From: Thermodesulfovibrionia bacterium
GTDB taxonomy: Bacteria; Nitrospirota; Thermodesulfovibrionia; UBA6902
Assembly: GCA_945788685.1 (NCBI GenBank)
Contig: CALZMZ010000003.1
Span: 1 to 58,641, forward strand
Direction of reading: 5' to 3'
DNA length: 58,641 bases
The notes under the pieces are model-generated. The model was not told the origin of the DNA, ran no database searches, and saw nothing but the letters and a program-made list of their open reading frames with translations. This document shows positions 22,418-39,335 of the stretch, in pieces (the first letter of the stretch is position 1; every line of letters starts with the position of its first letter). The translations under genes and the position numbers were made by a program.

Positions 22418-25352
22418 TGATCAGGCACGAAGTGCTGACAGGCCAAAGCTCGGTCTTGGTTATATTTCTTCCTATCTGAAAAAATATTGTGATGATATAG
22501 AGATAAGTGTTTCCTTTCAGGGTGATGATACTATCGGTATGATAAAGAGTTTGAAGCCTGATATTGTTGGTCTCACCGCTACAACAGAAACATTTAACAA
22601 TACTGTCAGCATTGCCCGGGACATAAAGGAATCACTGGGGATGCCCCTCCTTATCGGAGGGACCCATATTACCATTCTTCCACAGCATCTGCCGGAATGG
22701 ATTGATGCAGGGGTCATAGGAGAGGGAGAAGAAACCATACGTGAGATTATTTCATCATTCAGGAAATACGGTACAGTTGCTCATGAGAACCTGAATGGCA
22801 TTGTTTTCATGGACGGTCAACATCTGATCAGGACAGATGAGAGAAAACTGATTGATCCCCTGGACAGCATACCATTTCCTGACTGGGACATGCTGGGTCT
22901 GTCAAATACCGGCCCCGGACATATTATAACTTCCAGAGGCTGTACATATAAGTGTGTATTCTGTGCATCTGCAGCCATATGGAAAAAAATCAGGTTCTTC
23001 TCTCCAGAATATGTAGTGAATGAAATAAAGACAATTGTTGAAAAGTTCGGGAGACAGGAGATTCTCATTTATGATGATCTTTTCACTGCGAACAGCAAAA
23101 GAGTGCGGCGTATAAGTGAACTTATATGTCAGGAAGGTCTGGACAGGTCAGTCAGGTTTGAGTGTCTGAGCAATGTCAACCATTTCAGTCAGGAGACAGC
23201 ACAGGACCTCAAAAAGATGAATGTGCACAGAATAAGTTTCGGGATGGAGTCAGGTTCCCCGAAAATGCTCACATATCTCAAAAAGGGGACAGTTACTACA
23301 GAAAAGATCCGGAGCGCTGTTAAAGCGGGAGTCGATAATGGACTGGAAGTCCTCGGGTCGTTTATGATCGGCACTCCGGGAGAGACTGAAGATGATATGA
23401 AAATGACATATGATTTTATTAAGGGTCTTGGATTGACAGAGGTCGGCATAAATGTAGCAACTCCTTTTCCAGGCACAGATTTATGGAACTATGCTGTTGA
23501 AAACAACTATATAAAAGATGCATGGGACGACAGCATATATGCCATGAAAACGATAACTCCGGAAACTATCAAGGACAAACAGCTTCTCTGTTCAGTTGAA
23601 AAAGACAGGTTTATTGAAATATATAAAAAATTGATAGATCTGGACAGCATGCTGATTGACCGCCGTATCAGGGTACGGACATTGAGAGATATCGTCCTGA
23701 ATACATTCGGGAAGGATATGACCCGCTCATCAACATGTAAGGTGCTGGATGTCAGCTGCGAGGACGGTGCCCTGGGTGCTGCTATTAAATCAAGGATTGA
23801 TGCTGAGGTCACAGGCATGAATCCTGATCTGCATTATGCAGCAGACTGTGAGAGAAGGCTGGATAGTGTGATAAGAGGGGACCTGAATGAAGTCGGGGTA
23901 AAATATGCTGGGGGTTATTTTGATGTAATTCTTTTTAATGAACTGATGCCTGATCATGAGACCTTCAAACATTATAATGCCCTTCTCAAACCGGAAGGTG
24001 TTATAGCGGGAACGTTTGCAAACAGGATGCATTTCTCGTACCTTGCTTACTCAGTCTTAGGCATAAACAGGCCTCTGTTTGAAACAACAGATGGCACGCT
24101 GCAGTATATGAAATGGGGTATGCCTGAAAAAGACAGGTTTCCGGGCAATGTGTTGAAAGACCTTGAATCCTTCTTAAAGAAAGAGGATTACAGCATCTCA
24201 ATTTACGAGTTCAAAGGTCTTGATAATATTTTTTCGCAAGAGTTATTACATTATCTGGGATCCTACCTGTCTCATCCTGATGAATTTTATTACGAATCAA
24301 AAGTGATAAGATATTTTTTTATGGCAGAGAATAAAACCGTATCACCTGAATTTCATAAGGAAGATAAAGCCATGGTGCGTCATGATGAGAATTGTGTTCA
24401 GGATAGCAGAAGCGGAAGCATTAAGATGAAAAAGGATAATAAAGAATCTATTGAAAATTTGGCATCTCTTGTGCCTGATCAGGCAAAGAAGATTATGCAC
24501 CCTGGATGCGGAGACGGGGAACTTGGCAAAGAACTTTTAGCCAGGGGTGCAGAAACAGTTATCGGGATTGAACGAGATACTTCAAAGTGTGAAAAAGCCC
24601 GCAGCAGCATTACTGAAGTTATATGTGGAGATATCGAAGAGGCAGATCTTCAATATGATAGTGGGTATTTCGACTGCATCATATGTGATGGTATTCTTGA
24701 ATACCTCAAAGATCCGCTTCATATCTTAAAGAAACTGAAAGACTGCCTGTCTGACACAGGTACGATTGTCGCTGTTATAGCCAATACCGGAACTATTCAC
24801 CATATTAACAAACTGATAGACGGGCAATGGAACTCGGATCATATTGATGGTCCGGATGGTATTCCCCTGAGATTTTATACAAGAAAAGAAATAGAGAATC
24901 TGTTTGATGCATCCGGTTTTGAATTGACCGGATTAAGCCCGGGTGCAATGCATCCTGAGTATCATGAGGTTGATGCTACAGCATCTCATAATGCGACAGC
25001 TGGACGTGTTTCATTGAAAGGACTGACCCCTGAAGAATTGAGAGATATGTATACTGTGAATTATCTGATCAGGGCAGGGAAGAAAGGTGTTGAGTTAGAA
25101 ATTCTCACCAGCCATGTTAACTCATTGTTGCATGATGAAAAGATAAAGGAAGCGGAACAGGCAGTTCAGAAATACCTGGAGGTCCACCTTGCTGACACCA
25201 ATGCACTTTTATTGCACGCTGATATATGTGTAATGCAGGACTTATATGAAAAGGCTCTGGAAAGTATAAATAAGGTGCTTCTTTTTGAACCGGAAAGACA
25301 GGATGCGATTGAGCTGAAAAGCAGGATACAGAAATCCGGAGTCGTTGCCTGA
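22398..25352 (+). CDS. B12-binding (class B) radical SAM enzyme fused to two class I methyltransferase modules and TPR tail
   Basis: 984-aa ORF. The N-terminal cobalamin-binding-type region reads 'DIVGLTATTE...LLIGGTHIT'. The radical SAM motif is 'SRGCTYKCVFCAS'. The two methyltransferase-like motifs are 'VLDVSCEDGALG' and 'IMHPGCGDGELG...FDCIICDGILEYL'. TPRs occupy the C-terminus. Confidence 0.8.
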   Translation: MKLHLVNDQARSADRPKLGLGYISSYLKKYCDDIEISVSFQGDDTIGMIKSLKPDIVGLTATTETFNNTVSIARDIKESLGMPLLIGGTHITILPQHLPEWIDAGVIGEGEETIREIISSFRKYGTVAHENLNGIVFMDGQHLIRTDERKLIDPLDSIPFPDWDMLGLSNTGPGHIITSRGCTYKCVFCASAAIWKKIRFFSPEYVVNEIKTIVEKFGRQEILIYDDLFTANSKRVRRISELICQEGLDRSVRFECLSNVNHFSQETAQDLKKMNVHRISFGMESGSPKMLTYLKKGTVTTEKIRSAVKAGVDNGLEVLGSFMIGTPGETEDDMKMTYDFIKGLGLTEVGINVATPFPGTDLWNYAVENNYIKDAWDDSIYAMKTITPETIKDKQLLCSVEKDRFIEIYKKLIDLDSMLIDRRIRVRTLRDIVLNTFGKDMTRSSTCKVLDVSCEDGALGAAIKSRIDAEVTGMNPDLHYAADCERRLDSVIRGDLNEVGVKYAGGYFDVILFNELMPDHETFKHYNALLKPEGVIAGTFANRMHFSYLAYSVLGINRPLFETTDGTLQYMKWGMPEKDRFPGNVLKDLESFLKKEDYSISIYEFKGLDNIFSQELLHYLGSYLSHPDEFYYESKVIRYFFMAENKTVSPEFHKEDKAMVRHDENCVQDSRSGSIKMKKDNKESIENLASLVPDQAKKIMHPGCGDGELGKELLARGAETVIGIERDTSKCEKARSSITEVICGDIEEADLQYDSGYFDCIICDGILEYLKDPLHILKKLKDCLSDTGTIVAVIANTGTIHHINKLIDGQWNSDHIDGPDGIPLRFYTRKEIENLFDASGFELTGLSPGAMHPEYHEVDATASHNATAGRVSLKGLTPEELRDMYTVNYLIRAGKKGVELEILTSHVNSLLHDEKIKEAEQAVQKYLEVHLADTNALLLHADICVMQDLYEKALESINKVLLFEPERQDAIELKSRIQKSGVVA

Positions 25353-25598
25353 TTTTATGCCTGGGAATTTCTACAGATTTCTTGACGTAAAAAGTAAACT
25401 CACTCCAGTTAGTCTTTTCAATCAATATGAATAAAGTTGTCATTCCCATGATCTGTTTTCCGTAATACTTTGAAGGATGAGCAACGGGAATCCAGTCTCT
25501 TCAGCTTTGATATTGAGAAAAATCTGTTTGAGAGAATCTGGAAAAAATGATCTGTGTATTGATAACAGTGCGGACCCAGGGGGCTCCGGAGCGCACAT

Positions 25599-26477
25599 TT
25601 ATACAAACATTCGATCACAGGTTATCAACTTATTATTTGAATTGATAATCATTTGTGTGTATTTCGTGCCATGATGCCGAACCAGCCCAAATTCTGGAAT
25701 TGCGGGGGTATCGCCGTCCATTTTCAAAGGTACGACACGACTGTGTTCAGCCCCATGTGGAATATTTTCAAACGCAAGCCCCATAGATGAGCAATCAGCC
25801 AGAGGCCATTGCCGGATACCGGTCAATCCGCGACAGATATCTGGGTTTATCGACCTGCTCGTGATATAGATTTCTGCATCTTCCTGATCAAGAATCATTG
25901 CTCCGTAATAAGGGTTAACCAGAGTTACAAAACAATTAACATCGGGATGATTTATTGTGACTTTACTCATAGTAAATGTATGCCCCGGACCCAGATTCAG
26001 AGTATCTTTGCGCAAATCCAGCTGATCATAATTATCAAACGGGACATTATGCCCCTGAAACTTTTCATAGCGACAGAAACCAGGACGGAATCCGGTACGT
26101 GCTAAAAGAGGTTTGAACTCAGCCCAGTACGAAAAGTTCTGCCAGGTAAGGTGCATATCATTCTCTGCATAAATATAGTAGCCATAATTACCTTTCTTTA
26201 CTGCATCAATAAGATCAAATTTATGAGCCCAGGTAAGTGCCCAATCCTTAAACATAGGCCTGGCAACTAACACATGGCAGGAAAGGTTCTCAAATGCTTC
26301 AACAATATGCTGCAGATCTCCACATATATCTTTCGACTCAAGGTCTATATAAATAAAACAGTCAATATCAGCTTCCCAGGCTTCATAATCTTCTAAAACT
26401 GACATCATCGTATCGATATTAGACATTGGTTTGTGTGCAGCTAAAGAAAGCCAAATTTTAGGTTTTTTTTGGAACAC
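25599..26477 (-). CDS. hypothetical protein
   Basis: 292-aa ORF, the only reverse-strand gene in the first 35 kb and convergent with the big operon. No confident motif was found; 'YIYAENDM' could be a DxD-like site. Confidence 0.5.
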   Translation of the reverse strand: MFQKKPKIWLSLAAHKPMSNIDTMMSVLEDYEAWEADIDCFIYIDLESKDICGDLQHIVEAFENLSCHVLVARPMFKDWALTWAHKFDLIDAVKKGNYGYYIYAENDMHLTWQNFSYWAEFKPLLARTGFRPGFCRYEKFQGHNVPFDNYDQLDLRKDTLNLGPGHTFTMSKVTINHPDVNCFVTLVNPYYGAMILDQEDAEIYITSRSINPDICRGLTGIRQWPLADCSSMGLAFENIPHGAEHSRVVPLKMDGDTPAIPEFGLVRHHGTKYTQMIINSNNKLITCDRMFV

Positions 26478-26945
26478 TTACTCCCTCCGGAATTGACGGC
26501 AATGTTGAAGATAAGCCACGGGCCAAATATATATGTTTCGTTTCATATAGACATAAAATAATTTTCATAATATTGAAATATAACAAGGGATCATGCATGG
26601 AAAAACCATCATTGTCAGAGGTATAGAAATATGTGCATTCATAGAGCCTCATTAGGAAAAAGTATATCCCATTTCATTATTACGGAGCAAGGATAAAATG
26701 CATGACGCATTGACACTAATTATAGATTTACAATGAAAATGTTCAGTGACACAGCGCAGTCCTGCATTGAAGATATTCAGATAGTATTTTCAGATGTGAA
26801 GTGATTGCCGGAATCAAGCTAATAGTGTTTTATCATCAGAAGCCTGCCTGCTTCGACATTACATACAAGAGGGAATTAAATAGAATACAAATGCTAATTC
26901 AGATTACACGTTAACACACCTAAAGCTCATTCACACTGACCATTA

Positions 26946-26961
26946 TTATTGACGTCAATAA
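26946..26961. promoter_or_regulatory. perfect 16-bp palindrome TTATTGACGTCAATAA, candidate activator (UAS) site
   Basis: The sequence is exactly self-complementary. It lies ~125-140 bp upstream of the sigma54-like -24/-12 element at 27084-27099. Confidence 0.3.
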
Positions 26962-27083
26962 ATTGACTGAGAATTCAGAAAACTTAATATAAAAATTATT
27001 TTTCGGCTATCCCTCTATCGTAATCCATGATTAATCAAGCAGTTAGGAACTCTTATGTATATCAATTCCATATGCCCGGATCT

Positions 27084-27099
27084 TGGCAACGGAATTGCA
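27084..27099 (+). promoter_or_regulatory. sigma54 (RpoN)-type -24/-12 promoter
   Basis: The sequence TGGCAA-CGGAA-TTGCA has the invariant GG and GC at the canonical spacing of TGGCACG-N4-TTGCA. It lies 38-53 nt upstream of the candidate starts of the 27137 ORF. Confidence 0.5.
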
Positions 27100-27136
27100 G
27101 TATATTGCTCAGGATTAATATCACGTTTGGCGTGAT

Positions 27137-28915
27137 GTGTTAAAACGGATTATGATTTTTAAGAAAAACATACAGCAACTCAGGCTGACTGACCGGGAAC
27201 TTGCAGACGGGATATCAAACGCAGGACAGTCTGTTGACGTAGTAATTTCTGAATCAAGGTCAGGTGCACCGACATTGCAGGTAAATAATACCTATATTCA
27301 CAGTTCATATGATCCTGTTAAGGAAGCAAAAGAGTGGTTAAAAAATAATGAACAATACATTCACGGGGCTGACAATATCGTTGTGTTTGGTTTCGGTCTG
27401 GGATTTCACCTGAATGAACTTTGCACAAGCACTCAAAAACAGATCACCGTGTTTGAACCTAACCTTCATGTGCTGAAGGCAGCATTTCAGAGTCAGGATT
27501 TAGAAGCTGTACTATCGAGAATTAAAATAATTACAGATGTTTCCGCACCATACTTTGAAGACGATACAGCTGTGCTGACTCTTCAGTCATCTCTGAAGTT
27601 GACCCCGGAATATTTTGATCAGGTCCTCTTAAAACTGAAAGCCAGAGACATATTAGCAAGTGGTTTGAGAATCATGGTTGTCGGTCCTGTATATGGTGGT
27701 TCACTTGAGGTTGCAAAGTACTGCTCATCATCATTGATAAACATGGGACATACAGTCGAGCTGGTTGATAACAGCAGATTTGATGACACACTGTTTTATA
27801 TAAGGGAAATAACCAGTAATAAGAACCACTATGATGCCCTTGTCGAAAAGTTTACAGCGTTGCTGTCTGAATTCATTCTGGCCCGCTGTGAGGAGTTTCA
27901 GCCCGATATTGTTATTAATCTTGCCCAGGCACCTGTAACAACTGACTGTATTGAGAGAATCAAACATTATGGTGTCAAGACCGCCTACTGGTTTGTCGAA
28001 GACTTCAGATTCATGGAATACTGGAAACAGGTAGCCGGCAGTGTTGACCATTTTTTTACCATTCAAAAAGATGATTTCTTTGAAGAAATGAAACAGTCAG
28101 GATTAGACAATTATCATTATCTCCCCATGGCAGCGTATCCTCAGGTACACAGACCTGTTGATCTGTCAGAGGAGGAAAAAAAGTATTATGGAAGTGAAAT
28201 TTCATTTGTCGGAGCCGGATATTACAACCGGAAACATTTCTTTAATGGATTCATTGACCATGATCTGAAAATCTGGGGGACTGACTGGGACATGCATTCA
28301 AAGCTTGCCGGCTTTATCCAGCGGTCAGGCAGCAGGGTAGATACGGATGAGATAGTGAGGATTTATAATGCCAGCAGGATCAATATTAATCTTCATTCAT
28401 CAACATATCATAAAGGAGTAAACCCTTTTGGAGATTTTGTTAACCCCAGGACATTTGAGATCATGTCCTGTGGAGGATTTCAGCTTGTGGACAGAAGGAG
28501 CGGACTCGATGGACTGTTTGAGGAAGGAGAAGAGGTTGTTATATTCAATGACCAGAATGACCTGCGTCAGAAGATACAACATTATCGTGAACATCCGGAG
28601 GAAGCAAAAAGAATCTCAGAGAAAGGAAGAAACAGGGTCTTAAGAGACCATACATATGAAAAGAGGATGCAGGAGATGCTTGAAGTAATAGTTGCAGATG
28701 ATTATGAACCTGCCTGCTGGGCAGATAACAGAGAGCTTGTACAGGACCTGATTACAGAGGCTGATGCAGAAACAGAGGTGGGAAGATACCTGTCACAATT
28801 TAATGAACATGAACACATAGCCCTGTCTGATATCATTGAGAAAATATCAAATGAAGATGGAGACTTATCAAGAACAGAGTCAATATTTATGATGATGAAT
28901 GAGTTTAAAGGCTGA
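27137..28915 (+). CDS. Maf-N-like / CgeB-like putative protein glycosyltransferase, paralog of 18510-20186
   Basis: 592-aa ORF with a GTG start at 27137 and an ATG alternative at 27152. 'IHSSYDPVKEAKEW...VVFGFGLGFHL' and the C-terminal 'RTFEIMSCGGFQLVD...EVVIFND...RNRVLRDHTYEKR' are collinear with the 18510 ORF. Confidence 0.55.
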   Translation: MLKRIMIFKKNIQQLRLTDRELADGISNAGQSVDVVISESRSGAPTLQVNNTYIHSSYDPVKEAKEWLKNNEQYIHGADNIVVFGFGLGFHLNELCTSTQKQITVFEPNLHVLKAAFQSQDLEAVLSRIKIITDVSAPYFEDDTAVLTLQSSLKLTPEYFDQVLLKLKARDILASGLRIMVVGPVYGGSLEVAKYCSSSLINMGHTVELVDNSRFDDTLFYIREITSNKNHYDALVEKFTALLSEFILARCEEFQPDIVINLAQAPVTTDCIERIKHYGVKTAYWFVEDFRFMEYWKQVAGSVDHFFTIQKDDFFEEMKQSGLDNYHYLPMAAYPQVHRPVDLSEEEKKYYGSEISFVGAGYYNRKHFFNGFIDHDLKIWGTDWDMHSKLAGFIQRSGSRVDTDEIVRIYNASRININLHSSTYHKGVNPFGDFVNPRTFEIMSCGGFQLVDRRSGLDGLFEEGEEVVIFNDQNDLRQKIQHYREHPEEAKRISEKGRNRVLRDHTYEKRMQEMLEVIVADDYEPACWADNRELVQDLITEADAETEVGRYLSQFNEHEHIALSDIIEKISNEDGDLSRTESIFMMMNEFKG

Positions 28916-28919
28916 ATAC

Positions 28920-30632
28920 ATGAGACAGATTTTAATCATAAATCTTACGAGAATGGGGGACCTGCTCCAGACTACGCCTCTTATGGCCGGTATCAAGTCC
29001 AAATATCCCGGCAGCAGGATCAGTCTACTGGTAAATTCAGCCTTTACAGAAGTGTGCAGAGGTATCCCCTGCATAGACGACCTGATTGAGTTTGATATGA
29101 AAGGATACCTTGTGAGACGTATGGAGGGGAAACACTCACTGGTTGAGAACTACAGGATTCTGGAAGCCCTGGTCAACAGCATTAATAACAGGGAATATGA
29201 TCTTGCGGTAAATGTAACGCATTCATCAGTCAGTGCAGTGCTTGTATCGCTTATAAGGGCAAAAGAGGTGAGAGGATTTACCATAAGTTCAGAAGGACAC
29301 AGGGTGATAAAACACCCATGGGTAAGGTATTTTTTCAATGTTATACCAAACCGCAATTATAATCCCTTTCATATAGTGGATATGTATCTCAAAATAGGAG
29401 ATGTCAGTCCGGTAACCAGAGGGCTGGTATACGATATATTTCCAGATGACGAAGAAAGGGCTGACCAGATACTTGCCAGGGAAGGCATACATAATGAGGT
29501 CCTGGTGGGCCTGCATCTTGGTGCCAGCAAAGATGAAAAAGCATGGCCGGTTTCATCTTATGCCGGGCTTGCAGATATGATATGCAAACAACTTGGGGTA
29601 AAAATAATTCTCTTTGGAACATCATCGGAAGCTCTGCTTGCATCAGAATTTGAAAAATATGCGGAAACCAGACCCGTAAATCTCGTGGGTAAGACGGGGG
29701 TCGGAGATCTTGCATCGCTGCTTAAGAAATGCAGTCTTTTCATCAGCAATGATACCGGTCCGCTGCATGTTGCTACATCAGCAGGCACAACGGTCATAGA
29801 TATATCCTTGGCAAATGTCCATTTTATGGAGACGGGACCTTTTGGAGAAGGGCACTATGTACTACAGTCTGATCTGCCATGTTCTCCGTGCGGTTTTGAT
29901 GTGCAGTGCAATGACAGGGTATGTAACTCCCTCATTACACCGGATAAGGTATTTGAGGTGGTGAAAGCAGCACTGGACGGAGCAGGGGACAACATTGAAT
30001 TGAGTACTGAAAAAATGGAGCAGGTCCAGGTGTACAGATCTTATTTTCAGGAAGATGGATATCTTGATTATAGACCTTTGATAAAACGTTCACTTGAGGT
30101 TAATGTGCTTTATCGTTTGATATACAGACAGGTCCTGAATACGGAGTCAGGGAAGATTGACTCCGGGACTGCCGGTATTTGTGAACGTATATGTAAAGAT
30201 ATTGAAGAACTCTACCTGAATGAAAGTGTACGTTTGTGTATGGAAGTCATTAGTGATGATCTGGATGTACTTGCACATCTGGTCAGACTGACAGAACAAG
30301 CATTGCGTCATCTCAGGAATCTGGAGCAGGGAGTCAGCAGAGACATCAGAGACAATAAAGAGATAAAAAATATCTGGAAAAAAATTGAACCGCTTGAAGA
30401 TGAAATTAATCTCATAGGAGACACGCATCACTGTTTTAAGCCCTTGACACTGCTTTTTGATTATTCAAGGGAGGCATTGGAAGGGGATGACCTTGAAATT
30501 CTTGTAAAGGAGTCAATTGAAATATATGAAGGCCTCTTAATTAAGGGAGAAAATATGCAGGCAATAATGACAGGAATGAAATCTGTATTGAATGTTCAAA
30601 CAGAGAACAGTAAGCTTGCCATGACGTCTTAA
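28920..30632 (+). CDS. glycosyltransferase family 9 (heptosyltransferase-like) with ~230-aa helical C-terminal extension
   Basis: The start 'MRQILIINLTRMGDLLQTTPL' is typical of GT9. 'SNDTGPLHVA' is present, as is the Cys cluster 'CSPCGFDVQCNDRVC'. The ORF track also allows a start at 28899, overlapping the upstream gene. Confidence 0.75.
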   Translation: MRQILIINLTRMGDLLQTTPLMAGIKSKYPGSRISLLVNSAFTEVCRGIPCIDDLIEFDMKGYLVRRMEGKHSLVENYRILEALVNSINNREYDLAVNVTHSSVSAVLVSLIRAKEVRGFTISSEGHRVIKHPWVRYFFNVIPNRNYNPFHIVDMYLKIGDVSPVTRGLVYDIFPDDEERADQILAREGIHNEVLVGLHLGASKDEKAWPVSSYAGLADMICKQLGVKIILFGTSSEALLASEFEKYAETRPVNLVGKTGVGDLASLLKKCSLFISNDTGPLHVATSAGTTVIDISLANVHFMETGPFGEGHYVLQSDLPCSPCGFDVQCNDRVCNSLITPDKVFEVVKAALDGAGDNIELSTEKMEQVQVYRSYFQEDGYLDYRPLIKRSLEVNVLYRLIYRQVLNTESGKIDSGTAGICERICKDIEELYLNESVRLCMEVISDDLDVLAHLVRLTEQALRHLRNLEQGVSRDIRDNKEIKNIWKKIEPLEDEINLIGDTHHCFKPLTLLFDYSREALEGDDLEILVKESIEIYEGLLIKGENMQAIMTGMKSVLNVQTENSKLAMTS

Positions 30633-30697
30633 AAAAATACATGAAAGGGACAAAATTCCTGATGCTGATGTATTCAATATAAAACAAGGAGGAAAAA

Positions 30698-31126
30698 ATG
30701 AATGAAACAAAAGTTGTAACAGAGCAGCCTGAGATACTCCAGGCTATTAAAAACAGTGTAGGAGATGCAAGGCATGTAGTAAAAGAACTTGCAGAGGTTT
30801 TTACTGAACGTATCCAGCCGTTAAGACTGGAAGAAAGTGAAAGTGTTTTCAATGATCTGACCCAGAATATTTATGATCTCCAGGGCCTGATGGAGTTTAT
30901 TATGGAACTGAAGAACGGTATGAACTATTTTGAAGGATTCGGTTTACCGGCTGATCCCATAACATCCGATGGCAGCGGGCTTGCATTGTTCAATGAGATG
31001 CATACTTCCATGGAATCCAAGGACTGGGTAATGCTGGCAGATCTTATTGAATATGAATTGTCACCGCTCCTGCTTAAAGAGGCAGAATGGTTAGGTGAAC
31101 TGAATGACATACTCATGGAGTATTAG
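30698..31126 (+). CDS. hypothetical small acidic helical protein
   Basis: 142-aa ORF with strong SD 'aaggagg'. No motif was recognised. Confidence 0.5.
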   Translation: MNETKVVTEQPEILQAIKNSVGDARHVVKELAEVFTERIQPLRLEESESVFNDLTQNIYDLQGLMEFIMELKNGMNYFEGFGLPADPITSDGSGLALFNEMHTSMESKDWVMLADLIEYELSPLLLKEAEWLGELNDILMEY

Positions 31127-31238
31127 GACAGGCTACGTTCAAGATTTGATAATGGTCAACCGATTAGTAAAGAGAGACCTTTATTATTTGTCCTTAACCC
31201 ATGTAATAAATGGTTCGGATATATTGAAAATAAACTGG

Positions 31239-31808
31239 ATGAGGGAGAAAATCCTTGTTGCTGATGATGATTATATAGTCAGGGATCTTGTTGTCAAATT
31301 TTTATCAGACGAAGGATACGCAGTAGCCGTAGCAAGCGATGGTATTGAAGCTTTCAATATGCTCAGACGTGAAGACTTTAAACTTGTACTTTCCGATCTC
31401 AGGATGCCCGGTGCAGATGGGATGGAAGTACTGAGGGCAGCTATCAGAACAGATCCCAATATTGCGGTAGTGATTATTACAGCATATGGAACGCTTGATA
31501 CGGCACTTGAGGCCATGAATGAAGGAGCGTATGACTATATTGTAAAACCGTTTGTAATGCAGCAGTTGCTCCTGGTTGTTAGAAATGCATATAGAATGGC
31601 GATATTAATCGAAGAAAATGAAAAGCTGGCATTACAGCTTAAAGAAACATATAGATCACTTGAGGCCTGTAAGTCGACCAATGCACGGAGTTCAGCTATG
31701 AACGACAGGCCTGATCCGGAAACGGACAATAACCATGAAGCAGATGAAGTCAACAGAGAAAGTATAAAAAAATATAATTCTCTGGTTAATGGACTTAAAA
31801 TTAATTAA
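31239..31808 (+). CDS. response regulator, receiver domain with coiled-coil tail and no recognisable output domain
   Basis: CheY-like motifs are 'ILVADDD', phospho-Asp 'LVLSDLRMPGADG', 'VVIITAYG' and 'DYIVKPF'. The start is placed at the internal ATG ('MREKILVADDD'), because the ORF-track start at 31104 overlaps the upstream gene. Confidence 0.8.
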   Translation: MREKILVADDDYIVRDLVVKFLSDEGYAVAVASDGIEAFNMLRREDFKLVLSDLRMPGADGMEVLRAAIRTDPNIAVVIITAYGTLDTALEAMNEGAYDYIVKPFVMQQLLLVVRNAYRMAILIEENEKLALQLKETYRSLEACKSTNARSSAMNDRPDPETDNNHEADEVNRESIKKYNSLVNGLKIN

Positions 31809-31852
31809 TCGTGAAATGTAATGGCAGTATTTAAGAAAAATCGGAGGCCAAG

Positions 31853-32458
31853 ATGACCGATGAAGAAAAAGAAATAAAACAGGGTGAAGAGAGAAGAAGA
31901 TATTTCAGGGTTGATGATGTGATATCTGTAGTTGCAAATCCCATTCATGTTGATAAAGAAAAGAGTGATGAATTTGCAAAGACTATTGCTACATCCCGGG
32001 CATTTTCTCTTGTGGAAGGTCAGAATTTGGATGCAGCTGACAACGATAATTCAGTGCCTCTTGATTCTGACAATAAAAAATTATATGAAATGATGACAGA
32101 ACTGAAAGCAAAACTTGATTTTATCATCAACCAGTTTATGCTGGAAAAAGAAGGGTTGAATAATCCGGAAAAGAAGTTTGTTAACATCAGTGCGTCCGGA
32201 ATCAGGTTCACTGTCGATCATCCCGTGAATGAGGGTGACATAATGGATATAAAGCTTCTTTTGCCTACATACCCCCCCGTAGCTGTCTTTGCCTATGGAG
32301 AAGTATTAAGAGCAGTTCCTCTGGACAATGGAAAGTATGATGTAGCTCTTGAGTATCTCAACATGTCTGAATCAGTAAAAAACGAAATTATACAGTATGC
32401 CTTTGCGCATCAGCGGGATACAATCCGCAAAACAAAGAGCGCGGAGAATAATGAATAA
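31853..32458 (+). CDS. PilZ-domain c-di-GMP receptor with a long insertion between its binding motifs
   Basis: 201-aa ORF. RRxxxR is at residues 14-19 ('RRRYFR') and (D/N)xSxxG at residues 111-116 ('NISASG'). Its stop overlaps the downstream motA-like start (ATGAATAA). Confidence 0.75.
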   Translation: MTDEEKEIKQGEERRRYFRVDDVISVVANPIHVDKEKSDEFAKTIATSRAFSLVEGQNLDAADNDNSVPLDSDNKKLYEMMTELKAKLDFIINQFMLEKEGLNNPEKKFVNISASGIRFTVDHPVNEGDIMDIKLLLPTYPPVAVFAYGEVLRAVPLDNGKYDVALEYLNMSESVKNEIIQYAFAHQRDTIRKTKSAENNE

Positions 32459-33209
32459 AGCGAGCATATTAGGTGTATTAGTTGGTATCCTGGCCATCCT
32501 TGGTGGCAATGCGCTGGAAGGCGGAAATGCCGGATCCATATTGCAGGGATCTGCAGCGCTGATAGTTTTTGGCGGCACATTCGGCGCAACTGTTTTAAGC
32601 TTTTCGGGAAAAGACATTATGCTGGCAGCAAGGATGTGTAAAAGCGTATTTTATGATAATAAATTACTGCCAAATGAAGAGTCGATAATATCGGATATGG
32701 TGCAATTTGCTTCAAAAGCCAGAAAAAACGGGATACTCTCTCTTGATAGAGACATGTCCAGACTGCAGTATGGTTTTTTCAGAAGAGCTGTCAGGCTGGC
32801 AATAGATGGCATTGATCCAAATACTATCCAGACTACACTTGATCAGGAGAACAAGACCTTTGAGGAAGAAAGAGGCAGAGCAGCAAAAGTGTTTGAAGCT
32901 GCAGGCGGTTATGCTCCCACCATTGGAATTATAGGTGCGGTCCTTGGACTTATACATGTTATGGAAAATCTGAGTGACCCGACCAAGCTCGGCTCTGGCA
33001 TAGCTGTTGCATTCGTGGCAACCGTATATGGTGTAGCTTCTGCAAATCTCATACTTTTACCAATGGCAAAAAAAATGATCAACAATATTAAAGATGAAAT
33101 ATTTGTTAGAGAGATTATTGTGGAAGGCGTGTCAAGCATACAGGCAGGCAAGAGCCCTTTCTATCTGAAAGAGCATTTAAGCGCATTTGCCTCAAAACAT
33201 AAAAACTGA
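32451..33209 (+). CDS. MotA/PomA-family stator channel protein
   Basis: The protein is ~252 aa starting 'MNKASILGVLVGILAILGG'. The C-terminal TM pair with 'APTIGIIGAVLGLI' and 'AFVATVYGVASANLILLP' is typical of the MotA/TolQ/ExbB family. Confidence 0.85.
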   Translation: MNKASILGVLVGILAILGGNALEGGNAGSILQGSAALIVFGGTFGATVLSFSGKDIMLAARMCKSVFYDNKLLPNEESIISDMVQFASKARKNGILSLDRDMSRLQYGFFRRAVRLAIDGIDPNTIQTTLDQENKTFEEERGRAAKVFEAAGGYAPTIGIIGAVLGLIHVMENLSDPTKLGSGIAVAFVATVYGVASANLILLPMAKKMINNIKDEIFVREIIVEGVSSIQAGKSPFYLKEHLSAFASKHKN

Positions 33210-33252
33210 CAAAAAAGTCGATTTATTTTTATTACACTGTACAGCTATAGCT

Positions 33253-33960
33253 ATGAGAAAGAAAAGGAAAGAAGTTAAGAGTCATGAGAATGTTGAAAGG
33301 TGGATGGTGTCATACGCTGATTTTGTTACGCTGTTATTCTGTTTTTTTACGGCAATGTATGCTATCAGTAATGTAGACACCAACAAGCTTGAGAAATTTG
33401 CATCTTCCATGAAGACAGCGTTTAATGATGGCGAAAAAGTGAAAAATTTTTCGGTTATTGATGATGTCCAGGTTCTACTCCCTACTTCAGCGGAGACTGA
33501 ATCCAGCATAAGAGAGATGCTGAGTACCATCATAAAGGAATCTGATGGATCGCTAGATGTTAAAAGGGACAAAAGGGGGATTGTGATTGCAGTTGCCGAT
33601 AAGATGCTTTACAAATCAGGTTCGGCGGAACTGAAAGAAGATGCTGTAAACTTTCTTGATCAATTGGTACAACCGATTCTGGAGTATCCAAACCCGGTAA
33701 GGATTGAAGGGCACACAGACAATATTCCCATCCATACGAAATCGTTCCCTTCAAACTGGGAATTGTCAGCATCCAGGGCAATTAACGTCGCAAAATATTT
33801 TGTTGATAAACATGATGTTGATCCTGGAAGGATTACCTCCATAGGTTATGCAGAACACAAACCGGTTGCATCAAATGACAGCCCTGATGGACGTGCCAAA
33901 AACAGGCGGGTAGATATAGTTCTCTTAAGTGACAAGGAAAGCAGAAAAGAACCGTACTAG
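33253..33960 (+). CDS. MotB/PomB-family stator protein (OmpA-like C-terminus)
   Basis: 'WMVSYADFVTLLFCFF' is the plug/TM segment with the conserved Asp. The OmpA-like domain reads 'RIEGHTDNIP...SNWELSASRA...NRRVDIVL'. The start is set at the ATG giving 'MRKKRKE'. Confidence 0.85.
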   Translation: MRKKRKEVKSHENVERWMVSYADFVTLLFCFFTAMYAISNVDTNKLEKFASSMKTAFNDGEKVKNFSVIDDVQVLLPTSAETESSIREMLSTIIKESDGSLDVKRDKRGIVIAVADKMLYKSGSAELKEDAVNFLDQLVQPILEYPNPVRIEGHTDNIPIHTKSFPSNWELSASRAINVAKYFVDKHDVDPGRITSIGYAEHKPVASNDSPDGRAKNRRVDIVLLSDKESRKEPY

Positions 33961-33961
33961 A

Positions 33962-33996
33962 CAATTTCCAATTTCCAAGCTCAAATGCCAAATACA
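33962..33996. repeat. decaying period-7 tandem array (CAATTTC-like units)
   Basis: The units are caatttc caatttc caagctc aaatgcc aaataca. The array starts 2 nt after the motB-like stop codon. Confidence 0.5.
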
Positions 33997-34042
33997 TGCC
34001 CAACCTGACTCAATGTTATAATTCATACGCCTGATACGTTAG

Positions 34043-34155
34043 GTCATTCCCGCAGTTTTTTAAGCGGGAATCCCTAGTGATGCTAGTTTTCTGGATTCTC
34101 GATGCGAGTCTACGCGAGAGTCGCTCCGACCCGCTCAACTGACCGCGGGAATGAC
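34043..34155. repeat. small palindromic intergenic element with 11-nt terminal inverted repeats GTCATTCCCGC...GCGGGAATGAC
   Basis: The terminal inverted repeats were read directly. An inner 8-bp hairpin pairs ATTCCCGC with GCGGGAAT at 34046-34071. A related copy lies at 44970-45046. Confidence 0.55.
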
Positions 34156-34231
34156 GGGTATATGCAGTGGACATGTTATAAGTATTTTCAGCTCTTTATT
34201 AAATCTGACAGTTTCTGACAAAATAAGAACC

Positions 34232-35332
34232 ATGACTGTTCCGGAAAAAGACAACGAAACAGAACTGAAACAGCAGTCATTGCTGTTCAGACAGATTTTT
34301 AAGAGTCAGAAGTGGTGGCAGAATATTATTGATGCAATTACGGATTATCTTTTTGTAATTGATCAGGAATATAAAATACTGCGGACGAACAAGGCGTTTG
34401 CAAATTTGTTTGACAAGGATCCCGCCAATATAATTATGACACCATATTATGAACTTTTTGATCTGACCGGTCCTCATGAGTGGGCGACTCTCCTGATAGA
34501 AAAGGAAAGCTTACAGCCCAAGTCGGTCGAGAGGGAAATAAACGGTTCAACATATCTTATCAGTTCATATCCGATTTATTTTGATGAGCATGATGCGACC
34601 GTTTATATCATGAAGGATATCACTGAAACGAGAAGATTGAAGGACCAGGTGTATCACCTTGATAAGTTATCATCGCTGGGTACGTTGACATCAGGTGTTG
34701 CACATGAGATCAATAATCCTTTGACCGGCATTATCGGGTATACGGAAATGCTCTTAATGAAGAACAAGGATGACACTCATAAAAAATACCTTCAAAATGT
34801 CTATGACTCTGCAATCAGGTGCAAGAAAATAGTTGAGAACATGCTGACCTTTTCGAGACAGCACAGAGCAGAGAAAAGCATAGAAAAGGTCAATGACCTT
34901 ATAAACAGGACTGTTGAGCTTCATGAATACTGGCTTAAATCTACAAACATCAAGATAATAAGGGACTACGGAGATGTCCCGGGTATTTCTATAGACCGCC
35001 AGCAGTTCCAGCAGGTCATCCTTAATCTTCTGATTAATGCTGAACATGCCATTTCAGAGAGAAATGTCAAAGGTGAAATTGCTTTTAGAACATCTTACAA
35101 TGAGAAAACAGGCAGCGTTAATATAATAGTTTCTGATAACGGTTCAGGAATACCACCTGATGTCCTTGCAAAAATATTTGATCCGTTTTTCACTACCAAA
35201 CCTGTAAATAAGGGGACAGGTCTTGGTCTTTCCATAGCCCACGGTATCATTGCTGAACAGGGTGGAACAATAGAGGTTGAGAGTAGTATGGGAAAAGGTA
35301 CTTCATTTATCATTAACCTTCCATGCTCGTAA
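34232..35332 (+). CDS. cytoplasmic PAS sensor histidine kinase
   Basis: Motifs are H-box 'GVAHEINNPLTGIIGYTEML', N-box 'LLINAEHAI', G1 'DNGSGIP' and G2 'GTGLGLSIAHG'. No TM segment is apparent. The start is set at ATG 34232, because the ORF-track ATG at 34151 lies inside the repeat element. Confidence 0.85.
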   Translation: MTVPEKDNETELKQQSLLFRQIFKSQKWWQNIIDAITDYLFVIDQEYKILRTNKAFANLFDKDPANIIMTPYYELFDLTGPHEWATLLIEKESLQPKSVEREINGSTYLISSYPIYFDEHDATVYIMKDITETRRLKDQVYHLDKLSSLGTLTSGVAHEINNPLTGIIGYTEMLLMKNKDDTHKKYLQNVYDSAIRCKKIVENMLTFSRQHRAEKSIEKVNDLINRTVELHEYWLKSTNIKIIRDYGDVPGISIDRQQFQQVILNLLINAEHAISERNVKGEIAFRTSYNEKTGSVNIIVSDNGSGIPPDVLAKIFDPFFTTKPVNKGTGLGLSIAHGIIAEQGGTIEVESSMGKGTSFIINLPCS

Positions 35333-35655
35333 CAGTTCAGGTTTACAATTGAAGTGAAATGATAACCTGAAGTGTTAAATGTTTGCAAAGGCTTTTCCTT
35401 TTTCGGCTGATAAATTACAAATAAATTACAAGATCCAAATTCCAAAAAATGAACTACCGCCCGACTATGGATAATAAGACAGTAGTCTTATGTTCCGGAG
35501 CGTTACCTTAACCGGTTCTCCTGGTCTTCTCACGTTTTGATAATTGGTGCTTATTTGATATTTGTATTTTATTATTTGTTATTTATGCCCTGAGAAAGCA
35601 GGAAAAGCGTTTACAGACATTGAATGTGCATCTAGTGTTCAGAACTATTGAAGCA

Positions 35656-36681
35656 TTAGAAAACCGGATTCCATCCTTTTTTATCAATTACAGGTGAAAA
35701 GTCGTTTTCAGAAGCATCCCCGGTCCGGCTTTCCTTGGGGGAGGATGGAGCAGTTTCAGGCTTTTTATCGATTTTCGGTTCTTCGATAACAACCTTGATT
35801 GAATCTTTATCGTTATTACCCCTGGCCGTAACTGTTGATTTGTCTATTATTTGCAATAGTTCCTTTGACATTTTCTTTGCAGGGTCATTGTCGTTTATTA
35901 ACGGGTTTTTAGGTTTCTTCTTCTGGGGGAACTTAAGAATGATGCTTATCCTCCTGTTTCGGGCATCATTCGGGTCCTCCTTTATGAGTGGATCAGTGTC
36001 AGCAAACCCTGCTACACTGACAAGTCTTTCAGGATCGAGCCCATTAGCTTCAAGTTCTCTTCTCGCTGAAGATGCCCTTTCAGTGGAAAGTTCCCAGTTA
36101 CTGTAATTTTTTCCTGCAAAGGGCAGAGCGTCTGTATGTCCCTCAATGCTGACCCGATTTTTAATGGATTTGATATTTTCAGCAATTATGCTCAGGATCT
36201 CGCTGGCCTTTGAAGTCATTTTATTACTTCCGCGCTGGAACATGGTACTGCCTTCATTGTCTGTAAGGTGTATCCTAATTCCATCCCGGACTTTCTCTAT
36301 TAACACCTGGTCTTCAAGATCACCCAGTTTGTCTGAAATCGCTTTACTTAAGCTTTCCTGAATTTCATCAGCAGCATCATCATCTCCCTCCCGTTCTATC
36401 AATACCTTTTCATTTCCCTGTCCAGCTGTATTGAATAAATCTGCTTCTGCACCGCCAAGGAAGGAACTTCCGCTTTCTGAATAGAGGCTGAAATTCTTAT
36501 AATATTCAGATATACGTGCCCTTTTCTCGTCAGAGACCATTGAAAGAAGCCATAAAAGCAGAAAAAAGGCCATCATGGCAGTGACAAAATCAGCGTAAGC
36601 TACTTTCCATGCTCCGCCATGATGACCGCCACCTGTAACTTTCTTTATTTTCTTTATAATAACAGGCTTGCGATTGCTCAT
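35656..36681 (-). CDS. motB: flagellar stator protein MotB with Lys/Pro-rich C-terminal extension
   Basis: 341-aa ORF with 'AWKVAYADFVTAMMAFFLLLWLL' and the OmpA-like 'SIEGHTDALPF...SNWELSTERA...NRRISIIL'. Its start overlaps the motA stop. Confidence 0.85.
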   Translation of the reverse strand: MSNRKPVIIKKIKKVTGGGHHGGAWKVAYADFVTAMMAFFLLLWLLSMVSDEKRARISEYYKNFSLYSESGSSFLGGAEADLFNTAGQGNEKVLIEREGDDDAADEIQESLSKAISDKLGDLEDQVLIEKVRDGIRIHLTDNEGSTMFQRGSNKMTSKASEILSIIAENIKSIKNRVSIEGHTDALPFAGKNYSNWELSTERASSARRELEANGLDPERLVSVAGFADTDPLIKEDPNDARNRRISIILKFPQKKKPKNPLINDNDPAKKMSKELLQIIDKSTVTARGNNDKDSIKVVIEEPKIDKKPETAPSSPKESRTGDASENDFSPVIDKKGWNPVF

Positions 36682-37526
36682 GACCTGAGGGATTCTTCAA
36701 GTTCTGTGAAACCCGGCTTTGCTACGGAAGGGATGACCCGTCTCGCATATTCAACAGCTATTTGCGGTGCAGCGCCTCCAACGAATGACACCAATGCTAT
36801 CTTGATTACTTTAAAAGCGAGCATATCTTCTTCAGCAATATGCTCAAGATTTGTGCCGATAGGTCCGACAAATCCATAACTTAAAAGAACACCGAGAAAT
36901 GTCCCGACCAGTGCCGCACCAATGCTTGCTCCTAATATTTCGGGCGGTTCGCTGACCTTTCCCATAGTTATTACGACGCCTAGAACAGCTGCAACAATTC
37001 CCAGGGCAGGAAGTCCATCCGCAATCTTATTAATACTGTGAGCAGGAATCAGTGCCTCATGATGATGGGCCTCCATCTCGATTTCCATAACATCATCAAG
37101 CTCATGAGGTGTGACATTGGTCGATATTATTACTTTGAGATTATCGCACAGGTAATTCAGGGCATGATGATTTTTGAGAAGGCTCGGGTACTTGGTGAAT
37201 ATGGGACTTTCAGCAGGATTTTCAATATCACCTTCAATGGCTATAAGTCCCTCTTTTCTCATTTTTGAAAAAACCGCATTCAGCACACCTAAAATTTCAA
37301 GGAATTCTCCCTTGCTGGTACTCTTTGATGAAAGCACTCTCATCATGTTCTTAAGCACCAAGCCAAGAATTTTCCCCGGTGACGAAATAATGAATGCTCC
37401 TACTGCGGCCCCACCGATTATAAGCAGTTCCGTAGGTTGAAACAGAACATGCAGGTTACCGTGATGCAGGACGTAACCACCAATAACAGATCCAAAAACA
37501 ACAATCAGGCCTATTATTACGAGCAT
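36678..37526 (-). CDS. motA: flagellar stator protein MotA
   Basis: 282-aa ORF starting 'MLVIIGLIVVFGSVIGGYVLHHGNL'. 'GLPALGIVAAVLGVVITM' and 'GAALVGTFLGVLLSYGFVGP' are classical MotA motifs. SD 'aggaagg' is present. Confidence 0.9.
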   Translation of the reverse strand: MLVIIGLIVVFGSVIGGYVLHHGNLHVLFQPTELLIIGGAAVGAFIISSPGKILGLVLKNMMRVLSSKSTSKGEFLEILGVLNAVFSKMRKEGLIAIEGDIENPAESPIFTKYPSLLKNHHALNYLCDNLKVIISTNVTPHELDDVMEIEMEAHHHEALIPAHSINKIADGLPALGIVAAVLGVVITMGKVSEPPEILGASIGAALVGTFLGVLLSYGFVGPIGTNLEHIAEEDMLAFKVIKIALVSFVGGAAPQIAVEYARRVIPSVAKPGFTELEESLRS

Positions 37527-37587
37527 GTCATTCCTTCCTGATATTTCATAAATTTTCTTCCAGGTTCCGAGATCCTTCTAGGTATAT

Positions 37588-37614
37588 ATTCGGTCAATGA
37601 CAATCAAAACTTTA
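37588..37614 (-). promoter_or_regulatory. sigma28 (FliA)-like promoter for motAB
   Basis: The reverse complement reads TAAAGTTT-tgattgtcatt-GACCGAAT, compared with the consensus TAAAGTTT-N11-GCCGATAA. The -35 element is exact. The -10 keeps the CCGA core. It lies ~60 nt upstream of the motA ATG. Confidence 0.4.
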
Positions 37615-37761
37615 ACCTGGCTTATAATCTCTGGTTCACCATAACATATTTAATTAAAAGGAAAAAATATATTTGTACTTACGTGAAGAACCTGATGTAC
37701 TTGAATTAAGTGATTACATCTATTAATGTTATTTAATCTATATTCTAAGGAGGTTATTGGT

Positions 37762-37950
37762 ATGGAATGCAGGATGGAGAAACATAAGCCCGATTGCAAC
37801 TGCACGTATGAGCCGTGCAGCAGAAAGCATAAATGCTGCGAATGTCTGCATTATCACAGAAGGAACAATGAACTTCCTGCCTGTTTTTTTAACAGTGAAC
37901 AGGAAGCAACATACGACAGGTCTGTCCGTTATTTTATAAGCACACGGTAA
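37762..37950 (+). CDS. small Cys-rich protein (conserved hypothetical)
   Basis: The start at '[32 protein letters not shown]...LPACFF' is preceded by SD 'aaggagg'. There are nine Cys in about 50 residues. Confidence 0.55.
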
Positions 37951-38163
37951 AAATATGAGCTGTCAGATGATAGACTTTATTGCCGGCAGAATGATATCTT
38001 GTGACACGGAATCTCACTTTAAATTCGGCAAACCGACATTTGGTAATTAGTAATATTTATGTCTGGTTCATGTCTGCAAAAAAAAGTATTGATAATTTTT
38101 TCAAAAAAGTGCAGATTAGTATAGTTCAATGATGAACGCATAAACCTAATGTAGGAGGAGAGA

Positions 38164-38607: not shown

Positions 38608-38840
38608 TTTTTTTACAGGGTTCCATTACCTGTAAAAGAAGTTAGACAGATATTCTGAACAGTCGTTGGTTGAATGTATGAATGGTGCTGGTCTGCGTGC
38701 TGTCACACGTTTTATGCTGTTCATTGCACAAAACAGATCATGTGAACATCTTTTTTGCCATTACACATGATAGCATGTCCAGTCACTATTGCCAGGTGAT
38801 ACTGGATCGGGATCATTGTACCATCAGATAATAATTATGA

Positions 38841-38878
38841 ACAGGAAATTACAATTCTGTAATTTCCTGTTTTTTCTT
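38841..38878 (+). terminator. rho-independent terminator
   Basis: A perfect 13-bp stem pairs ACAGGAAATTACA with TGTAATTTCCTGT around a 4-nt loop, followed by a T-run. Confidence 0.65.
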
Positions 38879-39240: not shown

Positions 39241-39268
39241 TAAATAATTAGATGAATAATACCGATAA
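39241..39268 (+). promoter_or_regulatory. sigma28-like promoter upstream of PilZ gene
   Basis: The sequence is TAAATAAT-N12-ACCGATAA, with a -10 that matches 7 of 8 positions of GCCGATAA. The TAAA-N16-CCGA spacing is the same as in the motAB candidate. It lies 68 nt upstream of ATG 39336. Confidence 0.35.
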
Positions 39269-39335
39269 GATTACATATTAATTAAACCGAATAACTTTTG
39301 GCCTTAAGAACTTATTGCAGGAGAAGTAAGACAAA

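Follow-up and report, generated by a model that had tools for sequence, protein, structure and literature searches.

We analyzed a 58.6-kb contig (58,641 nucleotides, taken in its entirety and hereafter called the window) from an uncultured Nitrospirota (Thermodesulfovibrionia) bacterium, in which a block of eight genes lies on the forward strand at 27,137-35,332: two glycosyltransferase (GT) genes (the first, GTm, with a Maf N-terminal domain; the second of the GT9 family) and a DUF8042 gene, which together we call the GT trio, followed by genes for a stand-alone receiver (REC), a PilZ protein, the two subunits of a stator (MotA2 and MotB2), and a PAS-domain histidine kinase. We consider it likely that this region is a junction of two flagellar gene sets, at which the GT trio, as flagellar glycosylation genes, adjoins a stator-control module (REC through kinase) encoding a regulated auxiliary flagellar stator of the MotCD type. 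Dual stators (MotAB plus MotCD) and PilZ proteins that brake or declutch the flagellar motor are already known; what is new is a gene for a protein resembling the tetrameric PilZ (tPilZ, inserted-helix) type that bears the motifs for cyclic di-GMP (c-di-GMP), coupled to a MotC-type stator gene, in a module that also supplies a kinase and a receiver of its own. We found this gene cluster described nowhere in the literature that we searched. Gene and domain calls were based on a list of open reading frames (ORFs) and a Pfam scan, with families graded by NCBIfam equivalog cutoffs; they agree with a first-pass annotation of the sequence, which had listed the same eight genes, domains, and order. 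For the comparison of loci (given L numbers below), one genome per species was scanned with an alignment of the PilZ protein and the window proteins were mapped onto the loci by tblastn; further contigs were compared through precomputed Pfam annotation. The PilZ relatives of the window carry the names Nitrospiraceae, Nitrospirae, or Thermodesulfovibrionia.

The first-pass annotation had offered two readings of MotA2B2: an auxiliary flagellar stator, or an ion-driven motor that serves a glycan-related machine of the envelope instead of the flagellum (compare AglRQS, ExbBD, and TolQR). The second reading draws on the adjacency to glycosyltransferases and on nothing else, and the proteins themselves speak for the first. 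MotA2 (32,451-33,209, forward strand; MotA_N and MotA_ExbB domains) scores 277.6 bits on the MotC-type equivalog NF006583 (PRK09109; cutoff 237), versus 19 bits on TolQ and 155 bits on the PomA model (cutoff 341), so that it is not PomA proper, and MotC/MotD-type is more exact than the earlier PomA/PomB-like label. Its matches to solved flagellar MotA structures range from E = 9e-55 (9lu9) to 1e-29; the segment ARKNGILSLD aligns with ARREGVLALE of 9lu9, which places the rotor-facing charged pair (the equivalents of E. coli R90 and E98), and both conserved prolines of transmembrane segments 3 and 4 are present (GGYAPTIG, LILLPMA). MotB2 (33,253-33,960, forward strand) has the transmembrane aspartate (in SYADFVTLL), the flagellar plug (Pfam MotB_plug, 74.8 bits), and an OmpA-like peptidoglycan-binding domain (69.8 bits). 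In relatives, moreover, the module stands amid late flagellar genes, and motCD also occurs without glycosyltransferases (see below). We therefore regard the non-flagellar motor as very improbable and close to refuted, the stator grouping by family models with canonical MotC/MotD.

A classical stator pair lies immediately downstream in convergent orientation, as the first-pass annotation had noted: MotB1 (35,656-36,681, reverse strand; PRK09041, 239.5 bits) and E. coli-type MotA1 (36,678-37,526, reverse strand; TIGR03818, 374 bits versus a cutoff of 303.8). The sigma28-like promoter ascribed to this pair is an imperfect motif in the window (TTAAAGTTTT...ACCGAATA, 37,587-37,615, reverse strand); several relatives have TAAA-N16-ACCGATAA upstream of motA1. 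By the family models and the genomic context in relatives, MotA2B2 is thus predicted to be a second flagellar stator, of the MotCD type, alongside classical MotAB.

The gene for the PilZ protein (31,853-32,458, forward strand; PF07238 at residues 108-184) is the one most intimately joined to the stator. Its stop codon TAA (32,456-32,458) runs past the ATG of motA2 (32,451) in an overlap of 8 nt (aATGAATAAa, with GGAG just upstream), which confirms the overlap of stop and start reported earlier; since this overlap is kept in relatives whose MotA2 identity ranges from 91% to about 50%, the PilZ gene is predicted to be translationally coupled to motA2. The protein carries both motifs of a c-di-GMP-binding PilZ domain, R15xxxR19 and N111xSxxG116, 92 residues apart; R15, R19, S113, and G116 are invariant in 16 homologues (54-100% identity), and N111 is found in at least 90% of them, so that binding of c-di-GMP is predicted at the level of motifs. 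In the AF2 model, strand beta1 (20-31) is followed by helices at 38-44 and 72-100 and by the barrel (107-169), i.e., the helices are inserted between beta1 and beta2, and a long Arg/Lys-rich helix ends the chain. Foldseek returned the tetrameric PilZ protein XCC6012 (3ph1/3rqa) as the top seven matches to this model (E = 3e-5, about 182 columns, TM 0.47-0.57), and MotI as the second-best (92 columns, barrel only). Thus, the modeled protein resembles the tPilZ type with its helical insert, yet retains both c-di-GMP motifs. At the place of the tPilZ interlocking motif, [DENH]x[KR]h[DEN], the long inserted helix of the window protein reads KAKLD (DAKLD in XCC6012); among the homologues, K87 and D89 do not vary and L88 is present in at least 90%. 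No PilZN (YcgR-N) domain was matched by Pfam, so by architecture the protein is not a homologue of FlgZ, YcgR, or MotI. The family is large (479 clusters at 50% identity, E <= 1e-10, in an exhaustive profile search), and its nearer members (about 250 residues, with an N-terminal extension) keep the stator context. There is also a second, small canonical PilZ gene in the window (39,336-39,701, forward strand), slightly beyond the classical motAB, and an extra PilZ gene directly follows motB1 in two deep relatives (13,609-14,007 in L043 and 15,343-16,398 in L047); these extra genes suggest that the MotAB stator has a PilZ effector as well.

Pseudomonas aeruginosa, with MotAB, MotCD, and FlgZ, similarly has both an E. 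coli MotA-type and a MotC/MotD-type set for one flagellar system, and its PilZ protein FlgZ, which binds c-di-GMP, is presumed to target the MotC-type stator. The flgZ gene stands beside flgMN, and in some relatives of the window, likewise, the PilZ gene is closely preceded by a flgN-like one. Unlike FlgZ, the window protein has the inserted-helix architecture in place of a YcgR-N/PilZN domain; its gene overlaps the motC-type gene in the same transcription unit; and a dedicated REC/PAS-kinase pair (with an HD-GYP protein in relatives) flanks the PilZ gene where Pseudomonas has the che cluster, with sigma54-driven glycosyltransferase genes directly upstream. YcgR (E. coli), MotI/DgrA (Bacillus subtilis), and MotL (Shewanella) are also c-di-GMP effectors on the flagellar motor, acting as brake or clutch proteins, but they differ from the window protein in domain architecture, by their PilZN domain, and none of them is encoded in translational coupling with a stator subunit.

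A structural parallel is FlgX of Campylobacter jejuni, a tPilZ protein unable to bind c-di-GMP, which forms half-rings beneath each MotA pentamer and is required for stator-ring assembly; the authors of the FlgX study raised, and called for tests of, the question of whether 5:2 stators in other phyla have tPilZ partners too (PMC11725899). As modeled, the window protein shares with FlgX the helices between beta1 and beta2 and the Arg/Lys-rich C-terminal helix, although no sequence similarity between the two is detectable. The association with stators is physical for FlgX and genomic for the window protein, which, unlike FlgX, keeps both c-di-GMP motifs; moreover, the neighbors of flgX are ubiA and flgW, not motAB, whereas the window gene overlaps motA2. 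Inserted-helix PilZ proteins that retain the motifs and bind c-di-GMP have been described in PA2989 and its "cluster 12" (10.1101/2020.02.11.943704). We liken the window protein to these only by the distance of more than 90 residues between RxxxR and the second motif and by the helical insert; in contrast to the window protein, they have no assigned function or stator linkage.

The module carries its own candidate phosphorelay. The receiver (31,239-31,808, forward strand; 99.6 bits in Pfam) is of the NtrC/AtoC type (its best NCBIfam matches are NtrX/AtoC/NtrC receivers), and its translation shows an intact phospho-acceptor pocket (DDD...D52...T...K) and a C-terminal coiled-coil-like tail. The kinase (34,232-35,332, forward strand), a PAS-HisKA-HATPase protein with 267 bits on the AtoS model, has the H-box AHEINNPL together with HisKA and HATPase_c, and it contains no hydrophobic segment, in agreement with the soluble protein described in the first-pass annotation. 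Its homologue always follows PilZ or motB2 in the Nitrospirota relatives and in L043, L046, and L047, and the REC and kinase genes occur together in every locus with enough sequence; a cognate pairing is plausible. The kinase has an N-terminal receiver of its own in many loci. Deeper relatives have a further component between REC and PilZ, a gene for a REC-(GAF)-HD-GYP phosphodiesterase (8401-9981 in L036, 5500-7032 in L039, 8521-10,011 in L046, and 8527-10,011 in L047), preceded by a conserved small ORF of 70-96 codons; both are missing from the lineage of the window. The ancestral module thus probably joined a phosphorelay to c-di-GMP hydrolysis beside the effector, with subsequent loss of the HD-GYP gene in this lineage.

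The conservation of the gene order, which the first-pass annotation had singled out as a check, could be established over a considerable range of divergence. We found the full order GTm-GT9-DUF8042-REC-PilZ-MotA2-MotB2-kinase in about 20 distinct Nitrospirota loci (PilZ identity 53-81%), a recurrence far above chance, and also in the more deeply diverged L043 (PilZ 37%, MotA2 57%, GT9 42%); the order within the module holds in the deeper relatives L043, L046, and L047 at 35-41% PilZ identity. The GT trio and motA2B2 nevertheless come and go separately. The GT trio is found without motA2B2 in L041, which otherwise shares the window's exact synteny through ahpC-gcvH-lpd-kdsA, and in L039/L040 (27-41% identity). 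The converse, motA2B2 with no GT trio, is seen in L018 and L035 (both preceded by housekeeping genes), in L020 (preceded by fliS-flgN-like genes), and in L047. Neither is present in L025, L030, and L031, which read Maf-FliC-FliD-FliS-FlgN-like-REC-PilZ-kinase, followed by convergent motB1-motA1. Since all four combinations of GT trio and motCD exist, the coupling of glycosyltransferases to the stator is not obligate. By these comparisons, REC-PilZ-kinase beside stator genes is the invariant core, the GT trio and motCD each being a facultative addition of its own.

The company kept by this core is flagellar in several loci: FliS-FlgN-...-REC-PilZ-MotA2-MotB2-kinase in L020; GT9-DUF8042-FliS-...-REC-HD-GYP-PilZ-MotA2-MotB2-kinase in L046; and, in L047, FlgJMNKL/FlaF/FlbT/flagellin/FliS-REC-HD-GYP-PilZ-MotA2-MotB2-kinase-MotA1-MotB1. 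A homologue in Mariprofundus, 29% identical, adjoins flgBC and two sigma54 activator genes. In L003, the eight-gene block lies in an unrelated neighborhood, without motAB or the glycan island, and this relocation indicates that the block is able to move as a unit. As a separate observation, an ORF of 175 codons in L020 (1547-2147), AfsA/hotdog-like and with a "DHVPG" motif recognized by eye, lies between the flgN-like gene and REC, and is preceded by a sigma54-like site, TGGCAAAGGATTTGCA.

These distributions bear on an alternative in which the functional unit would be the GT trio together with REC-PilZ-kinase, i.e., a glycosylation controlled by c-di-GMP and phosphorylation in which PilZ or phosphorylated REC switches GTm/GT9, much as PilZ domains gate cellulose or alginate synthases, and in which motCD is a passenger insertion. 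Such a unit would account for the loci without motA2B2 (L041 and L039/L040), where the trio is directly followed by REC-...-PilZ-kinase, for the movement of trio and module as one block in L003, and for a distant PilZ relative located beside a polysaccharide export cluster in L045. It is harder to reconcile with at least seven loci (L018, L035, L020, L025, L030, L031, and L047) in which REC-PilZ-kinase does without the trio and always lies near stator or filament genes, or with the overlap of the PilZ gene, which involves motA2 and no GT gene; in L046, furthermore, FliS, the small ORF, REC, and the HD-GYP gene stand between the trio and PilZ. We judge this alternative unlikely.

The block had been described as one sigma54-driven operon, and of this the sigma54 motif stands. 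A -24/-12 motif (P1, TGGCAACGGAATTGCA, 27,084-27,099, forward strand) lies 38 nt before the GTG start of GTm; about 20 loci conserve TGGCAAG-N4-TTGCT immediately before their GTm orthologue, and the forward strand of 555 kb of loci contains no more than 34 sites of equal quality. P1 therefore has what is expected of a sigma54 promoter (GG-N10-GC within the consensus TGGCAC-N5-TTGCW, in an intergenic position near a gene, and conserved), and we treat it as a predicted one. No sigma54 activator gene was found in the window by the Pfam scans, and no conserved sigma54 site was found upstream of REC across the loci. Two further matches to the sigma54 pattern on the forward strand, at 30,970-30,985 (in DUF8042) and 32,996-33,011 (in motA2), are not conserved in relatives and are probably due to chance. 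A second motif (P2, TCAAGATTT-N11-ACCGATTA, 31,139-31,166, forward strand), sigma28-like, occupies the 112-bp spacer between DUF8042 and REC; its block TT[C/A]AAGnTTT...CCGAT[T/A]A does not vary among six aligned loci, some with and some without the GT trio. Aligned to this block are a near-consensus sigma28 motif, TTAAAGTTTT-N11-CCCGATAA, in L018, L026, and L035, all GT-less, and also the sequences of L001 and L007. With a conserved sigma28-like promoter before REC, one simple sigma54 operon is improbable. A scan for terminators over 26,400-38,200 gave matches no more common than in shuffled sequences, and none between the GT genes and REC, which argues for read-through from P1 beyond the GT trio. 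The window thus probably has two nested transcription units rather than a single sigma54 operon.

Two promoter motifs would also suit a pure juxtaposition, in which the GT trio is the last operon of the flagellin-glycosylation island and shares only the flagellar regulon with the stator module, and REC-PilZ-kinase regulates some target other than the stators (e.g., chemotaxis adaptation or filament assembly). The independent presence or absence of GT trio and motCD fits this as well, as does the replacement of GT genes by filament genes before the module in some loci. We nevertheless find juxtaposition improbable: the translational coupling of PilZ to motA2 survives over the range of MotA2 identity given above, the module abuts motAB where motCD is absent, and the order sigma54 site-GT trio-REC, with spacers of 35-118 bp, survives deep divergence.

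The repeat element noted earlier between motB2 and the kinase gene proved to be a 113-bp MITE-like (miniature inverted-repeat transposable element) insertion at 34,043-34,155, with imperfect terminal inverted repeats of 26 nt. The corresponding spacer of L001, the closest relative, lacks it. The termini of this family read GTCATTCCCGC...GCGGGAATGAC, and a related, shorter copy is located at 44,970-45,055, between kdsA and kdsD; isolated terminal motifs of the family were also observed in L010, L012, L013, and L018.

GTm (27,137-28,915, forward strand; 46-74% identity across syntenic loci) comprises Maf_flag10_N, DUF3880, and Glyco_trans_1_2, the latter part a CgeB-like GT-B enzyme (137, 55, and 37 bits in Pfam, all above the cutoffs), the Maf N-terminal domain scoring 36.6 bits versus a cutoff of 23.5. 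The Maf catalytic domain (MAF_flag10/MptE-like, PF01973) was not found in it by Pfam, so GTm is not classed as a Maf flagellin glycosyltransferase, and no solved structural relative of GTm was found. The GT9 protein (PF01075, 87.6 bits; 577 residues; 28,920-30,632, forward strand, 28,920 being the likely start of an ORF that opens at 28,899) carries the long C-terminal extension that had been noticed previously: its GT9 domain ends near residue 331-357, leaving about 220 residues, and the total length is kept at 570-606 residues among relatives. Its closest solved structure is 3tov. The possibility, raised in the first-pass annotation as a refuting condition, that the glycosyltransferases are lipopolysaccharide (LPS) core enzymes was not borne out for this protein, which scores 79-87 bits on the heptosyltransferase models (RfaC/RfaF/RfaQ), far below every one of their cutoffs (135-467); the extension, too, is not present in LPS heptosyltransferases. 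The third gene of the trio (30,698-31,126, forward strand) encodes a DUF8042 protein (PF26154, from precomputed Pfam annotation) of 142 residues, helical as noted earlier: AF2 models it as a four-helix bundle (predicted local distance difference test, pLDDT, 83.8), and the C-terminal motif DWxxLxDLIEYELSPLL is conserved. Foldseek matched this model to generic four-helix bundles only, with no significant fold match. We rejected FliS and FlgN as identities (BLASTP and hhalign against FliS/FlgN-like profiles were negative, with a probability of about 1%), and also an Hpt protein, because homologues share no invariant histidine.

Most of the DNA upstream of the block (69-25,352, forward strand) is a 25-kb island for glycan biosynthesis and modification, whose products by Pfam scans include five radical-SAM proteins, TPR proteins, a PseA-like protein of the NAD-synthase family, a UDP-sugar dehydrogenase, methyltransferases, and GT2 enzymes. 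It also includes a paralogue of GTm (Maf-N/CgeB-like, 18,510-20,186), and in L011 and L019 the GT trio is preceded by homologues of its last gene (22,398-25,352). The island probably serves flagellin glycosylation. We further observed in the island three paralogous radical-SAM plus TPR proteins (5821-7314, 10,795-12,183, and 12,220-13,626, forward strand) and two other radical-SAM proteins, at 69-1316 and 22,398-25,352, the latter fused to B12-binding and methyltransferase domains, a set that suggests unusual sugar tailoring. A protein of 1616 residues (13,614-18,464, forward strand) has a GT2 domain near residue 1110 as its sole recognized domain, the remainder being unannotated, and a protein of 292 residues without a family match (25,599-26,477, reverse strand) lies between the island and the sigma54 promoter.

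From its context, the GT trio most probably acts in the cytoplasm, on flagellin or on a different flagellar protein destined for export. Flagellin is the simplest target because the glycan island is upstream, because a true Maf protein (PF01973 plus TPR) is encoded two genes upstream of the trio in L005 (and near the module in L025 as well), because FliS directly follows DUF8042 in L046, and because fliC-fliD-fliS-flgN fill the same position in GT-less relatives. The arrangement recalls the Maf flagellin-glycosylation islands of Campylobacter, Magnetospirillum, and other bacteria, in that GTm has the Maf N-terminal domain and the trio ends a large sugar-modification island; in Campylobacter, flagellin-glycosylation genes are under sigma54 control. 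It differs from them in the catalytic domain of GTm (CgeB-like GT-B, not Maf/MptE-like), and in the partnership of GTm with an extended GT9 (220 residues) and a DUF8042 bundle, both uncharacterized.

The auxiliary-stator reading of the first-pass annotation is, in large part, borne out by the MotC/MotD-type subunits, the PilZ motifs, the intact REC and kinase, the conserved sigma54 motif, and the fliC-fliD-fliS-flgN or fliS context in relatives; the proposed coupling of glycosyltransferases to the stator is not obligate. Several observations weigh against our interpretation. No flagellin gene is present in the window, and the target of the GT trio therefore comes from context only. Both MotB proteins fall below equivalog cutoffs, MotB1 on its own model and MotB2 on its best one (MotD, NF006541; 228.6 bits versus 283), which makes the latter MotD-like rather than a certified equivalog. 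The AF2 model of the PilZ protein is of moderate confidence (pLDDT 64), its profile found no solved tPilZ in a sequence search of the PDB even at E <= 10, and the first position of its interlocking motif is K (N in a few homologues), which does not fit, FlgX likewise failing this motif. The more distant members of the PilZ family lie in non-flagellar settings: one is stand-alone in Desulforhabdus, and that of L045 adjoins the exopolysaccharide export cluster. Finally, P2 reads TCAAG where the consensus is TAAAG, and a P2-type motif is missing in most other full-order loci, in which the spacers are short (35-118 bp).

With these reservations, we propose the following mechanism for the auxiliary stator and its glycosylation neighbors. 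P1 would drive GTm, GT9, and DUF8042 as the last part of the glycan island, and read-through from P1 would reach the stator-control module (REC, tPilZ, MotA2, MotB2, and PAS kinase), to which P2 probably adds a late-flagellar promoter in the clade of the window. The PilZ protein may bind c-di-GMP and dock from the cytoplasm onto the pentamer of stator A subunits, much as FlgX sits under MotA in Campylobacter or as FlgZ acts on MotC in Pseudomonas. There it would control the engagement of MotCD and/or MotAB units with the rotor, or the stability of that engagement. A second input would come from the soluble PAS kinase, by phosphorylation of REC; in deeper relatives, this kinase probably also controls the REC-HD-GYP phosphodiesterase and would thereby link the phosphorelay to local c-di-GMP.

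Downstream of the block, the window contains housekeeping genes, among them ahpC, gcvH, lpd, kdsA, and kdsD. A gene for a SWIB/MDM2-domain protein (38,164-38,607, forward strand) has an N-terminal tract of about 65 residues made of (A/V/T)KKK repeats, and an antisense "ORF" at 38,019-38,582 is an artifact of this repeat. A tRNA gene is located at 40,255-40,337 (forward strand; Rfam RF00005, 54.7 bits), the sole match in an Rfam scan of 25,000-41,000, which found no riboswitch. A protein of 1021 residues (54,539-57,604, reverse strand) has only a weak, patatin-like match at its N-terminus.

More tentatively, and as a possibility that we hold at well below even odds, the arrangement REC-(REC-HD-GYP)-tPilZ-MotC-MotD-(REC-)PAS-kinase-MotA-MotB could be a self-contained device for stator selection that is conserved in several lineages. 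The PAS kinase would then set the phosphorylation of the receiver and, ancestrally, of the HD-GYP protein, so that c-di-GMP is tuned locally at the motor, and a c-di-GMP-responsive tetrameric PilZ protein under the pentamer would pick which stator type engages the rotor. If this is true, docking of tPilZ proteins in the manner of FlgX would be widespread and ligand-regulated, rather than specific to Campylobacterota, and the sigma54-driven GT trio might also match filament glycosylation to motor output. For the locus family as a whole, the adjacency of glycosyltransferases and stator represents a separable neighborhood within the flagellar regulon, i.e., a new arrangement of known parts and no new glycan-driving motor; and the family provides genomic evidence of a tPilZ-stator association outside Campylobacter, in a form that offers a testable case, in which the association could be ligand-regulated.

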